From NCBI GenBank assembly GCA_963835575.1, contig CAWIGG010000002.1, forward strand, positions 1,312,001 to 1,376,000: a DNA stretch of 64,000 nucleotides, read 5' to 3'. Of this stretch, positions 40,492-50,598 are shown in pieces (within the stretch, counting starts at the first letter, position 1; each line of letters opens with the position of its first letter). The DNA comes from an uncultured Spirochaetota bacterium. Its GTDB lineage: Bacteria; Spirochaetota; Brevinematia; Brevinematales; JAOACQ01. Both the position numbers and the translations under genes were made by a program. The notes beneath the pieces are model-generated. The model was not told the DNA's origin. It saw only the letters and a program-made list of their open reading frames with translations, and ran no database searches.

Positions 40492-42108
40492 TCAGAACAG
40501 CCCGCTGATATTCCCTTTATCATCCACGTCAATATTCAAAGCTGACGGCGCTTTCGGCAGGCCGGGCATCGTCATGATCTTGCCTGTATAAATAACGACA
40601 AATCCGGCCCCGGATGAGATCTTCGCGTTGCTGACCGTGATCCTGAAGCCCTTCGGCCTTCCGGCGAGCTTCGGGTTGTCGGAAAGGGACGACTGAGTTT
40701 TGGCCATACAGACGGGAAGGCCGCCGTAGCCCAGATTTTCTATCTGTTCAATCCGGGTTAACGCTTCCGCGGAAAAATCCACTCCGTCCGCGCCGTATAT
40801 CTCCCGCGCTATCGTTTCAACTTTTTCTTTAACCGGCACATTCAGTTCATAAAGCGGGCGGAATTTTTTCGTCCCTTGTTTCAGATTGCAGATCTTTTCC
40901 GCCAGTTCCAGGCCGCCCTCTCCGCCGCTTTCCCTGAAATCCGTAATGACAGCTTCCACTCCGGCGGAGAGGCATTTATCCCTTAATTCCAGAAGGTCTT
41001 TCTCTTTATCATCCAGGAAGCGGTTGACGGAAATAATAACAGGGACATTGAATTTCCGGATATTTTCCGCGTGCTTTAATATATTTTCAATGCCATGCAC
41101 AGCATAAGCCCTCAGTGTAACGACAAGCACAGCGGCCCTGGGTTTGAGGCCTCCGAGCCGGCATTTGATGTCGAAAAATTTTTCGGCGCCGAGGTCCGCG
41201 CCGAAGCCTGCTTCAGTCACAGTGTATTCGGAAAACTTCATGGCCATTTTTGTCGCTATCATTGTATTACAGCCATGGGCGATGTTCGCGAAAGGCCCGC
41301 CGTGGACAAACACCGGCGTGCCCTCTATTGTCTGGACAAGATTGGGATTGACGGCATGCTTCAGTAGCGCCGCCATGGCGCCCTGGATCTTCAAGTCCTT
41401 CGCGTAGATGGGCTTTTTGAGATAATCGTAGCCGATCATGATATTCCCTATCTTTTCCTTTAAATCCATCAGGTCTCTGGAAAGGCAGAGAATGGCCATG
41501 ATCTCCGAGGCCGCTGTGATCTCGAACCCGTCCTCCCGCATCACGCCGTTAATGCCGCGGTCTTCCAGACCGATTATCATGCTCCGCAGGGAGCGGTCGT
41601 TCATATCGATCGTCCTTTTCCAGACCACCTGCCGCGGATTGATCTCCGGCTCGTTTTTCTGGTGAAGATGGTTGTCGACGACGGAGGAAAGCAGGTTATG
41701 CGCGGTTGTCACGGCATGAATATCGCCTGTAAAATGGAGGTTGATGTCCTCCATCGGCAGGACCTGCGAATATCCTCCGCCTGCCGCTCCGCCCTTGACG
41801 CCCATACATGGGCCGAGAGACGGTTCGCGTATGGCGATCATCGTCCTTTTGCCGAGCTTTGCGAGCGCCTGGCCGAGCCCGATCGTGTTCGTCGTCTTAC
41901 CCTCGCCCAGCGATGTCGGGGTCATGGCCGTCACTAGAATGAGGCCGGCGTCGGGAGTGTCCGCATAGCGCTCCATAATGCCCAGAGGGACTTTCGCGAT
42001 GTACCTGCCGTAGGGTATGAGATCATTTTCCGTGAGGCCGATCGAGGCGGCTATATCGCCGATCGGCTTCATAACGCTTTTCTGCGCTATTTCTATATCT
42101 GAAAGCAT
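40492..42108 (-). CDS. fhs: Formate--tetrahydrofolate ligase
   Basis: SDIEIAQ, TPT..GEGKTT, KGGAAGGGYSQV, HGGPFANIAHG, MTMPGLP. Confidence 0.97.
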   Translation of the reverse strand: MLSDIEIAQKSVMKPIGDIAASIGLTENDLIPYGRYIAKVPLGIMERYADTPDAGLILVTAMTPTSLGEGKTTNTIGLGQALAKLGKRTMIAIREPSLGPCMGVKGGAAGGGYSQVLPMEDINLHFTGDIHAVTTAHNLLSSVVDNHLHQKNEPEINPRQVVWKRTIDMNDRSLRSMIIGLEDRGINGVMREDGFEITAASEIMAILCLSRDLMDLKEKIGNIMIGYDYLKKPIYAKDLKIQGAMAALLKHAVNPNLVQTIEGTPVFVHGGPFANIAHGCNTMIATKMAMKFSEYTVTEAGFGADLGAEKFFDIKCRLGGLKPRAAVLVVTLRAYAVHGIENILKHAENIRKFNVPVIISVNRFLDDKEKDLLELRDKCLSAGVEAVITDFRESGGEGGLELAEKICNLKQGTKKFRPLYELNVPVKEKVETIAREIYGADGVDFSAEALTRIEQIENLGYGGLPVCMAKTQSSLSDNPKLAGRPKGFRITVSNAKISSGAGFVVIYTGKIMTMPGLPKAPSALNIDVDDKGNISGLF

Positions 42109-42127
42109 CCATAAACTCCTTATTAAA

Positions 42128-43299
42128 TTACAGTATTACCGGAACGCCGAAGCTTCCCAGTAAACCGGCCAGGTTGTCCTCACTGATGACATGCTGGTTC
42201 ATATAATCCAGGACCGTTTTCATATCGAACTCCAGGGAAAAACCGGGCACCTGCTTGTAATTCTCGTCCGAATCATCAACAATGGTAATATTTTCACCGT
42301 CAACCGATTCGGAACGCATAATATCAGTCAGAATCTTATCCTTATTGATACCGTCGATTGCGGCTTTGAAATCCACAGGGCTCATTTCGCCGATAACGCT
42401 TTTCGAATCGCTGTCCGTCTGGATCTGAAAGCCGTAGCTGTAATCGAGCCCCAGCTTCGATTTCAGATAATCCGTAAAACATGAAAAAGCGCTAGAGACA
42501 ATCGCGATTTTATAACCCATCACCTTGAGGGTCTGGAGCAGCTCCAGAGTGGCGGGCATGGGTTTCACGGATTGTATGACTGTATTCAAAACATCAAACG
42601 GAAGATTATCAAGGCGCTTGAGGGCTTCTTTTATAAAAGAAGCGCTGCCGCCCGAAGCCATGGCTTTTATAACTGAAGGCTTGATATCCGCCTGCTTGAG
42701 TAATTCCTGAATGACAGCGGGCTCGATAAAACTTTTATTGATATGAAAGAGGATGACCCTCTTTTTTTATTGAAAACGTCTTCCGTCTGGAACATGGTAT
42801 TGATATTCAGGCTGTTCATTGTCTTCTTCAGCTCGGTCTTTAAATTCTGAACCGGAAGGGTACAGCGGCTGATGTCGGCCAGGAGCTCCATCAGGAACAT
42901 CCCGGCACGGGCGATGTTCTGTGAAAACTCAATATTGATATTGTATTTTGAAAGGCTTTCCGAAATTGCGGCGATGATCCCCGGCTTATCGCTTCCGATC
43001 AGGACAAGGAGCATATTCTTCTTGTCGGAGCTCCTCGGAACGGGATAATATTTGTCCAGGATAAGGTTCAGGTTCGTGTCCAGCGAAAGCTTTTCCACAA
43101 GCTTTTTAAGTCCCTCCAGGCCGATGCCGGAATTGGAAAAATCCGTCACCAAGAATATGGTAAAGAGGCCGTGCATAACGTCCTGGCGCATATCGACGAT
43201 ATTGCCGTTAATTTTCGAGATTTCCTTCGTTATCCTGCCGACCAGGCCGACGGAATCACTGCCTGTGCCGTAGATGATATAAAGACTATGCTCCAGCAT
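42128..43299 (-). pseudogene. ACT-ACT-HAD (SerB-like) protein split by a frameshift in an A7 run
   Basis: Two ACT domains (G.D..GLV, G.DKPGII). One added A near 42765 gives FNKKKRVILFHINKSF... and joins 42128-42661. Confidence 0.75.
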
Positions 43300-47732: not shown

Positions 47733-49034
47733 TCAAGAAATCCCGATATCCGTCGGCGCCCTTCCCAGGCTTTTCAGCAGAGTCAATGTTTCCTCAATCT
47801 GTTTATTTAAATCCTCGTTCATATGCGCGCGGTACGGATAAATGGAGTATGCCTTTTTATATTGAGAAGGCGTCAGGTTGAGCATCACGGAGTTAGCGCC
47901 CGCCATCAGGCCTCTGCTCCGGGCCTCCTTACTGAGTGTTTCGAAGCCTGTCGTGACCAGTATCTTAGCGTTTTCCGGATCGGCGATCCTTGCCAGCGCG
48001 ATTGTTTTTAATATCAATTCAACGGGAGGTTTCTTCTGCCTTTCGAGGATCGTCCCCGGCGAAGGCAGGAACGGACCGAAGCTGTACATTTCCGTATGCA
48101 GTTCCCTGGCCAGGAGGATATCGTTCACAATGTCTTCCTCCGTCTGTCCCGGCAGGCCGATGAGCGAACCTGTGATGATGAGATAGCCTATTTTATAAGC
48201 TTCCCTCAAATGTTCCAGCCTTGTCCCGAGCGAATAGCCCGGATGAAGCTTTTTATAAATTTCCGGTTTCGATGTCTCGAACCGGAGGAGGAGTCCCCTC
48301 GCGCCGGCCTCATAAAGCTTTTTCAGTCCTTCGACGCCGGTCTCGCCGAAACTGATGAATATCAGCACAGGGTCCCTTTCTTTTATTTTCCGGATGATGA
48401 GAGCCAGTGCGTCAGAAGAATAACCGCAATTCTCGCCGCTCTGGAGGACAAGGGCTTTAAAGCCGTATGTCTGAATGGCTTCATGAGCGCTTTCCAGGAT
48501 CTCATTTTCCGTCATCCTGTACCGTTTGACGTTTTTAACTCCAATGGAAATACCGCAGTAGGCGCAGTTCCTGGAACATTGATTGGAAAACTCGATAATG
48601 CCATGGACACAGCATGAATTTTTATGGTACTTTTGTCTCAGCTGATTGGCGGTATGATAGAGTTCTTCCAGAGCACCGGGTTTCTTCATTTTCATCAGGA
48701 CCGTCATTTCCTGCCAAGTCAGTTCTTCACGGCGGAGCGCTTTTTCGAGCAGGTTTCCGGCATTTGAATCTATTGATTTGCCTTTACGATTAATACTCAG
48801 AAGCTCCTCGTCTTTTTTCTGGAGCTCAAAGAACAGTTCCCTCCAGGTTTTGAGTATCTCCTTCGCTTCCTTCGGCGCTATTTTTTCAATAACAAACCCG
48901 CCCTGAGCGTAGATATAATCGCCCGGAGTGAGGTCATGAAACTCGTTCAGCGCTTTCTTCTCCTCGCCGAAATAATCGACATACGCCCATTTTCCATCAA
49001 CAGACTTGACTTTACCCGGTATGGCATAACACAT
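47733..49034 (-). CDS. HypC/HupF-like domain fused to a HydE/BioB-like radical SAM enzyme
   Basis: N-terminus MCYAIPGKV..VDYFG..PGDYI..GF.IEKI. Then IIEFSNQCSRNCAYCG, LVLQSGE, LLRFETS, IGLPGQT, AGANSVM.NLTP. Confidence 0.85.
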   Translation of the reverse strand: MCYAIPGKVKSVDGKWAYVDYFGEEKKALNEFHDLTPGDYIYAQGGFVIEKIAPKEAKEILKTWRELFFELQKKDEELLSINRKGKSIDSNAGNLLEKALRREELTWQEMTVLMKMKKPGALEELYHTANQLRQKYHKNSCCVHGIIEFSNQCSRNCAYCGISIGVKNVKRYRMTENEILESAHEAIQTYGFKALVLQSGENCGYSSDALALIIRKIKERDPVLIFISFGETGVEGLKKLYEAGARGLLLRFETSKPEIYKKLHPGYSLGTRLEHLREAYKIGYLIITGSLIGLPGQTEEDIVNDILLARELHTEMYSFGPFLPSPGTILERQKKPPVELILKTIALARIADPENAKILVTTGFETLSKEARSRGLMAGANSVMLNLTPSQYKKAYSIYPYRAHMNEDLNKQIEETLTLLKSLGRAPTDIGIS

Positions 49035-49202
49035 GGCAATTGTCACCTCTTAACTGATAATTATACTGCATTTTAAACCAAGCGTCAAATTACATATCAT
49101 AGCTGTCCTTCTAATAATTTTCACAGGAAGGCCTCGCGGATAATTAATAAAAATATTTTATTAACTTAAATAGGGAATCTGTGTAAATCCGTTGAATCTG
49201 CG

Positions 49203-50598
49203 GAGTTATAATAGAAAGTTGTGTATAGGAATAAATATTATAAAAAAGATGGCGTACCCTCTATAATTTATTTACGACAATAAACAAAAGGAGGAATACG
49301 CCATATGCCGAAGCACAACGAAGATTTTAAGCTCTTAGAGGCTTTTAATCAAGATGAAACAGTAGAATTTTTATGTCTTGAAGAATTGGCAAGGATCGGG
49401 GCCAGGGAAATAATCAAGAAGGCTCTGGAAGATGAAATTAATGGGTTTCTTCAGGAGAGAGAGCATTTAACTATCGAAGACGGGAGAAAGGCAATAGTAA
49501 GAAATGGGTATCATAAAGCCCGTCAGATTCTCATTGGTGGAGGGGCTATTGATGTATGTATTCCGAGAACAAGGAACCGACTCGGAGGCGACAATTTTCA
49601 AAGCCTAATAGTACCGCCGTATATGAGAAAAAGCCTGAGAATTGAGGAAGCCATTCCATTGTTGTATCTCTATGGAGTCTCAGAGATGGATATGGAGAAT
49701 GCCTTGAGAGGATTGCTTGGTGAAGAAGCGAAAGGATTATCAGCCTCAAGTATAAGCAGAATGAAACAAGGATGGGGTAAAGAATATGATGAGTGGCGGA
49801 CATCCGATTTAAGCGATAAAAAGTATTGCTATATATGGGTTGACGGCATTTACTTCAATGTACAGGGCAGCGAAGACCGTTTATGCACTCTTGTAATGAT
49901 CGGAGCCAATGAGAATGGTGAAAAGGAGATTATTCTTGTTGAAGAAGGTTACAGAGAGAATTCCGAGACTTGGTTAGGGATATTAAGAAACCTAAAAGAA
50001 AAAGGTTTGAAAGGTCCTATTCTTTTTATCGGAGACGGAAGCCTTGGATTCTGGAAAGCAGCCAAAGAAGTATATCCTGAATCCAGATGGCAGAGATGCT
50101 GGGTTCATAAGATAAAGAACATTCTAAACAAGCTGCCCAAAGTATTACAGTCAAAGGCAAAAGAGATGCTTCATGAGATATGCAATGCTCCTGATAAGGA
50201 TAATGCTATCAAAGCTTTTGAATTATTCCAGGCGGTTTTTAATCCTAAATATCCAGCAGCTGTCGAATGTTTAGAAAAAGATTGGGAGCTTATGATCGAA
50301 TTTTATAACTGTCCGGCGGAACATTGGGTACATATCCGTACGACAAACGTAATAGAATCTACCTTCTCTACAGTTCGATTAAGAACTAAAAAGATGAGAG
50401 GCTGCGGAACCAGGGAAACGATTCTAATAATGGTCTATAAATTACTGGATAAGGCATCCAGGCGATGGAGAAAATTAAGAGGTTATGAAAAGATTTGCCT
50501 TGTATTGGAAGGCGCTGTTTTTGAGAACGGAGAGCTTGTAAAAAAGGCAGCATAAAAAAATGAGAGGGTATGTCATACACAACATTTGACAAAAACTC
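49203..50598 (+). mobile_element. IS256-family element, intact
   Basis: Imperfect 24-bp IRs GAGTT...GTTGTGTAT. 9-bp target duplication GAATCTGCG (49194-49202 and 50599-50607). Confidence 0.93.
49305..50555 (+). CDS. IS256 (Mutator) transposase
   Basis: RNGY, YIWVDGIY, GDG.LGFW, QRCWVHK, RTTNVIES. Confidence 0.95.
   Translation: MPKHNEDFKLLEAFNQDETVEFLCLEELARIGAREIIKKALEDEINGFLQEREHLTIEDGRKAIVRNGYHKARQILIGGGAIDVCIPRTRNRLGGDNFQSLIVPPYMRKSLRIEEAIPLLYLYGVSEMDMENALRGLLGEEAKGLSASSISRMKQGWGKEYDEWRTSDLSDKKYCYIWVDGIYFNVQGSEDRLCTLVMIGANENGEKEIILVEEGYRENSETWLGILRNLKEKGLKGPILFIGDGSLGFWKAAKEVYPESRWQRCWVHKIKNILNKLPKVLQSKAKEMLHEICNAPDKDNAIKAFELFQAVFNPKYPAAVECLEKDWELMIEFYNCPAEHWVHIRTTNVIESTFSTVRLRTKKMRGCGTRETILIMVYKLLDKASRRWRKLRGYEKICLVLEGAVFENGELVKKAA

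Follow-up and report, generated by a model that had tools for sequence, protein, structure and literature searches.

To our knowledge, the HypCDEF route has been treated as the universal way to the Fe(CN)2CO unit of [NiFe] hydrogenases. In the HydG-HydE-HydF route of [FeFe] hydrogenase maturation, HydG makes Fe(II)(cysteine)(CO)2(CN) from tyrosine. Cys2 of HypC bears Fe(CN)2CO and brings it to the large subunit in E. coli (PMC11565642 and PMC8692609), and the [NiFe] center is described as being made without any radical SAM enzyme in a review (PMC8855341). For HydE, one paper reports a direct transfer from HydG to HydE, a first radical step that almost detaches the sulfur from the iron, and dimer cyanides that are contacted by R54, T134, R155, and T269 (PMC11826987); another describes an exit site, S3, formed by a threonine and 2 arginines, mutation of which impairs maturation (PMC10114646). 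Here, we analyzed a gene in a 64-kb stretch of DNA (the window) from an uncultured Spirochaetota bacterium. The initial annotation, made from the window alone, had proposed an uncharacterized metallocofactor enzyme uniting these 2 pathways. This proposal was borne out, whereas the absence of a hydrogenase, which it had also invoked, turned out to be local to the window.

Results

A HypC domain is fused in frame to a HydE-like radical SAM barrel

The gene (P0001; 47733..49034, minus strand) has a stop-free translation of 433 amino acids with the N-terminus MCYAIPGKV. A ribosome-binding-site-like GAGGTG is located at 49044..49049 (minus strand), 9 nt upstream of the ATG at 49034, and a sigma-70-like promoter identified by consensus match only (TTGACG-17-TATAAT, 11/12) at 49060..49088 (minus strand). 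Because both sites lie ahead of this ATG, Met-Cys is the likely N-terminus of the protein. The Pfam scan proposed in the initial annotation matched all 3 domains named there: HupF_HypC at amino acids 1–64, covering 65/65 profile positions (53.8 bits versus a cut-off of 28.5) and thereby confirming the HypC pattern read from the N-terminus, Radical_SAM at amino acids 147–306, and BATS at amino acids 324–424. The radical SAM domain is in frame and contains CxxxCxxC and every HydE-style motif that had been quoted (IIEFSN, LLRFETS, AGANSVM.NLTP, and YSIYP). Among NCBIfam families, HydE (TIGR03956) scored highest, with 239.7 bits, slightly below the cut-off of 254.6, and the protein fell far below the other radical SAM families (score/cut-off in bits: PylB 135/348, BioB 106/225, HmdB 80/321). 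Its predicted structure has a pLDDT of 91.4 and a pTM of 0.92. Both domains are present in 120/120 of the best homologues listed (identity 57%–71%), which rules out a chance read-through or an assembly artifact, and 470/565 candidate stretches of the metagenome collection encode a relative. The source names of the homologues include Omnitrophota, Margulisiibacteriota, Saganbacteria, Nitrospirota, Parcubacteria, and Deltaproteobacteria. The protein is an in-frame fusion of HypC with a HydE-like radical SAM enzyme, and it belongs to a family that extends across several phyla. A plasmid search gave zero matches at E 1e-60, and a scan of the genome contigs with one protein query returned only 2 plain HydE-like loci. 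Our literature search, whose scope lay outside subscription journals and supplements, found no paper describing a HypC-HydE-like fusion. Databases label proteins of this family as HydE, HydG, HypC, or biotin synthase, and these mixed labels conceal it.

To compare residues, we used 138 fusions and 135 non-fused relatives. Within the HypC domain (amino acids 1–64 by Pfam; 48843..49034, minus strand), Cys2 (49029-49031, minus strand) is present in 138/138 fusions, a set selected on the Met-Cys start. The usual HypC His had been reported as replaced (YAQGGFV); in alignments with 4 solved HypC chains this position indeed corresponds to Gln44, and Gln takes the place of the His in 133/138 fusions. 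As in the HypC/HybG/HupF chaperones (PF01455, TIGR00074; 2Z1C, 2OT2), the domain has a Met-Cys start, a full-length profile match, and a β-barrel plus helix fold. Unlike these chaperones, it carries Gln instead of the conserved His (VHxGF), is fused to another domain, scores below the TIGR00074 cut-off (41.5 versus 48), and has a HypD partner in 0/25 fusion-carrier genomes tested.

The HydE-like barrel comprises amino acids 93–427 (47754..48758, minus strand; phmmer and Foldseek). Its closest solved relative by sequence is Thermotoga maritima HydE (phmmer, E 6e-67), and its top Foldseek match is 3cix (rmsd 1.4 over 336 columns). The radical SAM cluster ligands C153, C157, and C160 of CxxxCxxC (48555..48578, minus strand) occur in 138/138 fusions, and so does a signature, C142-x-H144 (48603..48611, minus strand), which replaces HydE His52 and Arg54 and is also found in 12/12 Planctomycetota fusions. 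With HydE numbering hand-read from the T. maritima HydE alignment, the H52 position is an invariant Cys, and the Arg54 position is His in 138/138 fusions and Arg in 116/135 non-fused relatives. The fusions keep E58, Q107, S136, R159, E161, M224, T269, M291, Y303, and Y306, and mostly have Arg at the K309 position (96/138). Three HydE residues are replaced, R54 by His, T134 by Phe or Cys, and R155 by Gly or Ala; Thr at T134 and Arg at R155 are absent from the listed top residues of the 138 fusions. We infer that T134, R54, and R155 are the threonine and the 2 arginines of the S3 exit site. Since the entry residues are kept and these 3 are replaced, the barrel looks, from its residues, as if HydE-type entry chemistry has been retained and the exit rebuilt.

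A tree of HydE-like proteins (FastTree, 101 rows, every second non-fused representative omitted, HydG as outgroup) placed the fusions and 7 relatives with the same His signature in one clade (SH 99). This clade lies among HydE-like proteins and apart from the plain HydE of the same genome (351.5 bits), so that the fusion does not group with ordinary HydE, as the initial annotation had anticipated; of the families suggested there, the tree covers HydE, with PylB and BioB outside its scope. Three HydE-like proteins (P0141, P0144, and P0171) have the Cys-x-His signature and no HypC domain and are possibly split or mis-started. Compared with HydE (TIGR03956; T. maritima 3CIX and 7O1O), the fusion shares the barrel fold, CxxxCxxC, and the upper-pocket and relay residues. 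It differs from HydE in its added N-terminal HypC domain, in the exchanges R54H, T134F, R155G, and H52C, and in forming its own clade, which is found in [NiFe] operons and alongside a plain HydE in the genome. The fusion is HydE-like at its entry and HypC-like at its exit, yet it lacks defining features of both families.

The genome keeps [NiFe] hydrogenases without HypD, HypE, or HypF

The genome that contains the window (94% complete, 7 contigs) has 2 [NiFe] operons, a group-3b-like one at C4:572965-577373 and a group-4-like one at C2:1042261-1052342, both labels being our reading, mainly from subunit content. Each encodes a large subunit with RxCGxC and DPCxSC, in which all 4 Cys are retained, and one HycI protease; hypA and hypB are located at C2:138972-140101. 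No hydrogenase or further hyp/hyd gene was found within the 64-kb window, as had been noted. The orphan status that this implied did not hold, because the genome has the 2 [NiFe] hydrogenases and hypA/hypB, and homologues of the fusion end [NiFe] operons. The sole HypC of this genome is the fusion. HypD was searched for in the genome and not found, and HypE and HypF gave no match over the cut-off. Two candidates for hidden maturases were rejected: the best HypE-like match is ThiL, and the HypF match is missing its N-terminal half and turns up in 4 searched genomes without [NiFe] as well. The latter is a 526-amino acid protein with the C-terminal (Kae1-like) half of HypF only (G000:C4:643407-644987, L231); similar matches occur throughout the order, including genomes without [NiFe] hydrogenase, and it was not found in G046 or G058. 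The genome therefore retains [NiFe] enzymes and nickel delivery, while the known route to the iron unit is missing. It also has a plain hydE, hydG, hydF, and 2 [FeFe] hydrogenases. Behind the 3b-like operon lie an NfnAB-like pair and a multimeric [FeFe] hydrogenase with TSCSPGW as its first motif (G000:C4:564348-577373). A hydrogenase-large-subunit-like protein without NiFe cysteine motifs is encoded at G000:C4:901300-902700 and is presumably Ehr-like.

Fusion and HypD exclude each other across genomes

In a phylum sample of 401 genomes with completeness of at least 90%, [NiFe] subunits were detected in 119, HypD in 103, and the fusion in 13. A 14th carrier, G058, was added afterwards and had been examined because it is [NiFe]-positive and HypD-negative; its fusion, located downstream of a 3b-like operon, is truncated by a contig end, and finding it there was one successful prediction from the exclusion pattern. 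With G058 included, HypD was found in 0/14 fusion carriers versus 103/105 other [NiFe] genomes. The Fisher p of this cross-table overstates the association because the carriers represent few lineages, with 12/14 in one order; the carriers' kin are not independent, and the counts reflect a handful of lineages. All fusion carriers of the sample have a [NiFe] subunit. The 16 [NiFe]-positive, HypD-negative genomes are the 13 carriers, G058, G325 (HypF present, plus a short match to HypC where a contig ends), and G395. The last is a real exception: this genome is 97% complete and encodes an intact Ech-type large subunit, and HypC, HypD, HypF, and the fusion were searched for and not found. This large subunit without maturases (G395:C128, L189) may be a relic or point to a further route, or it may be explained by a gap in the assembly.

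Among 41 relatives, the fusion is present in 13, [NiFe] in 21, and HypD in 6, all 6 belonging to a fusion-less family. Two [NiFe] genomes of the order have no fusion; their completeness is 57% and 73%, and the contig of the latter stops within the large subunit. In the 26 genomes searched for HypF and HypE, neither exceeded the cut-off in any of the 14 carriers, and the 6 HypD genomes contained HypF in 6/6 and HypE in 5/6. All 14 carriers tested also have HydF and HydG, and for this reason the co-occurrence of HydG in carriers of this phylum does not discriminate. A separate HydE-like gene is present in the 13/13 carriers examined.

Among Planctomycetota, 12/401 genomes have the fusion, and HypD was found in 0/10 carriers tested, including the single-contig G534; the background rate of HypD is known for the phylum sample (103/105), with none for Planctomycetota. 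Together with G006, this brings HypD to 0/25 carriers. In the fetched stretches, an intact [NiFe] large subunit lies near the fusion in 2/12 Planctomycetota genomes (G791 and G763), and 6 carriers show no hydrogenase. The fusion remains intact in G534, G655, and G697, while hypB, hydG, or hydrogenase genes next to it are disrupted or absent from the locus. Across the loci L207-L210, L215, and L217 (G534, G763, G697, and G655), a fusion-hydG-hypA-hypB-hydrogenase-sensor kinase arrangement has decayed step by step, and restriction-modification-like genes have entered behind the fusion; the arrangement is intact in G763 only, where the large subunit lacks the C-terminal extension. A subfamily in which the stretch linking the HypC domain to the barrel is about 40 amino acids shorter (L192 and L202-L206; G576, G650, G560, G427, G509, and G462) stands alone among housekeeping genes.

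These exceptions bear on the idea that the [NiFe]-like proteins contain no metal, or that unseen genes mature them, and that the fusion performs unrelated chemistry. G395, with its large subunit lacking known maturases, and the 6 Planctomycetota carriers without a hydrogenase in the fetched stretches fit this idea, as does the MAG-like, incomplete state of the genomes. We nevertheless regard it as very improbable, given the retention of all 4 Cys, of the C-terminal extensions and proteases, and of HypA/B, and a background loss of HypD of 2/105.

Homologues of the fusion lie in [NiFe] operons and are fused to HydG

We clustered 80 metagenome loci into 65 groups at 90%. A [NiFe] large subunit is encoded in 37/45 locus groups having 2.5 kb upstream, and the large subunits beside fusions belong to 3 types, among them 3b-like and group 4-like. 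The 28 locus groups with 5 kb on each side contain the protease in 20, HydG in 17, Rex in 15, and HypA in 12 (HydA in 3, HydF in 2, and plain HydE in 2), and HypD, HypE, and HypF were found in 0/92 fusion loci (1.17 Mb). The commonest order is hydrogenase, protease, short HypA, fusion, Rex, and HydG, homologues of the fusion being usually last in [NiFe] operons and often next to HydG. In G006, hydG adjoins hypA-hypB-fusion, and G763 has the order fusion, hydG, hypA, hypB, small and large subunit. All longer homologues found (20/20) are HypC-HydE-like-HydG triple fusions, which occupy at least 4 places, or changes, on the tree. The neighboring HydG proteins keep the dangler His motif and the auxiliary-cluster cysteines. 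The comparison of neighborhoods and co-occurrence envisaged at the outset thus yielded a [NiFe] operon context and carriers without HypD, HypE, and HypF, and the [NiFe] hydrogenase itself is the most likely client of the fusion.

Some HydG neighbors (L058, L071, L095, L097, and P0282-P0285) have CX5CX19C in place of CX2CX22C as their auxiliary motif, which we take to be a known variant. An 80-amino acid HypA without the zinc-finger cysteines, encoded at L071:9647-9889 and in many other loci, directly precedes the fusion in 24/65 locus groups.

The window copy of the fusion, like the copies across its genus, lies outside the [NiFe] operon. A tie to its upstream neighbors was rejected since the IS256-type transposase and CoA-activase genes are not conserved. 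The transposase (49305-50555, Mutator/IS256 family) is divergent from the fusion and has near-identical starts at C4:381228 and C4:383460. A tie to the downstream ABC pair was also rejected: the pair follows the fusion in 5/5 genus genomes and has its own promoter-like site, and we read this as local synteny. A search of the fusion gene with a Rex box pattern yielded no clear site. Elsewhere in the window, a formate-tetrahydrofolate ligase (40492-43299) is preceded by an ACT-domain ORF and a following ORF in another frame, and these 2 ORFs may represent a single gene that is split or frameshifted.

A second HydE that serves the [FeFe] hydrogenase, with the HypC domain as passenger or adaptor, would explain why TIGR03956 is the best family, with 4/11 fusions exceeding its cut-off by a narrow margin, and why carriers have HydF, HydG, and HydA, the last near the fusion in 3/28 loci. 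This explanation is highly unlikely in our judgment, because the carriers already possess the separate HydE-like gene, R54, T134, and R155 are replaced, and the [NiFe] enzymes would be left without a maturation route. Moreover, in its own order the fusion follows [NiFe] rather than HydF, and both fusion and [NiFe] are missing from 10 genomes that have a HydF match.

Discussion

A role of the fusion in [NiFe] maturation, in place of HypDEF, is highly probable. That it replaces HypD, HypE, and HypF in providing the iron-carbonyl-cyanide unit, using the product of HydG, is a more specific proposal that we consider reasonably probable. Compared with the HypCDEF route, the proposed one would likely have the same client and end product and retains HypA/B and the protease; it differs in that HypD, HypE, and HypF were not found in the carriers searched. 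With the HydG-HydE-HydF route and natural HydE-HydG fusions (P0146), it shares a HydG placed beside or fused to a HydE-like barrel. It departs from that route in that HydF rarely adjoins the fusion (2/28), the proposed acceptor is HypC, and the unit would be a single iron, not a dimer.

Gene order and the triple fusions point to HydG as the partner that would supply Fe(II)(cysteine)(CO)2(CN). The upper pocket of the barrel would bind this synthon, and the adenosyl radical would add to the cysteine sulfur as in HydE; judging from the kept residues, the cysteine thiolate would become a thioether and the iron would be loosened. A single iron unit could then pass, with no dimerization for HydF, via Met384/Met316 to Cys142/His144 and from there reach Cys2 in the HypC domain. 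The same pieces might be assembled differently, with the fusion acting as a scaffold only: HydG would provide free CO and CN, the barrel (C142, H144, and Met) would assemble Fe(CN)2CO as HypD does, and the radical chemistry would be secondary or directed at another substrate. The new invariant Cys and His ligands, the exclusion of HypD, and the release of free CO and CN by HydG reported in PMC9431212 agree with such a scaffold. It is unlikely nonetheless, since CxxxCxxC and the entire HydE upper pocket are almost invariant and the neighboring HydG proteins retain the dangler His motif and auxiliary-cluster cysteines.

The weakest step of the mechanism that we favor would be the exchange of one CO for the spare second cyanide of HydG, giving Fe(CN)2CO. 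The HydG product has 2 CO and one CN and the [NiFe] site needs the reverse, a mismatch that counts against this mechanism. According to PMC8855341 and PMC10114646, HydG produces 2 CO and 2 CN per cycle, the second CN lying outside the synthon, so the exchange is stoichiometrically possible. Delivery of the HydG Fe(CO)2(CN) unit unchanged, to give an NiFe(CO)2(CN) active site, would need no exchange of CO for CN and fits the same profile and neighborhood data. In standard [NiFe] enzymes, the motifs E-[VA]-P-R-G and [IV]-P-T bind the 2 cyanides, and both are kept in 27/27 aligned group-3b-like large subunits, which favors a standard Fe(CN)2CO site. A two-CO site would also have to be tolerated by 3b-like, group 4-like, and third-type large subunits alike, and we hold unchanged delivery to be quite improbable. 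To complete the favored mechanism, the HypC domain would, by analogy, insert Fe(CN)2CO in the large subunit, with HypA/B adding nickel and the protease acting last; the genes for this step (hypA/B, protease, and large subunits) are present in the genome. We also count against the mechanism G395, the presence of the full [FeFe] set in all carriers tested of the phylum, the lost HypC His, the HypF C-terminal-domain protein of the genome, the intact fusions that persist at 3 Planctomycetota loci with a decaying hydrogenase module, and the 6 other Planctomycetota carriers with no hydrogenase in the fetched stretches.

It is likely that many uncultured anaerobes of several phyla build [NiFe] sites without HypD, HypE, HypF, and carbamoyl phosphate, HydG and the fusion, sometimes as one 900-residue polypeptide, making the iron unit of the NiFe site from tyrosine, cysteine, and iron and bridging 2 maturation systems thought unrelated; the boldest form of this view has a unit with 2 CO and one CN. 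If true, a two-gene or one-gene replacement would overturn the universality of HypCDEF and the view that no radical SAM enzyme takes part, and it would account for [NiFe] hydrogenases in genomes without hyp genes. Heterologous hydrogenase production would gain a compact kit, and the fusion would be a naturally occurring HydE variant in which the first radical step is isolated. For the anaerobes themselves, such a replacement would give a defined source of both CO and CN and link the evolution of the 2 maturation systems.
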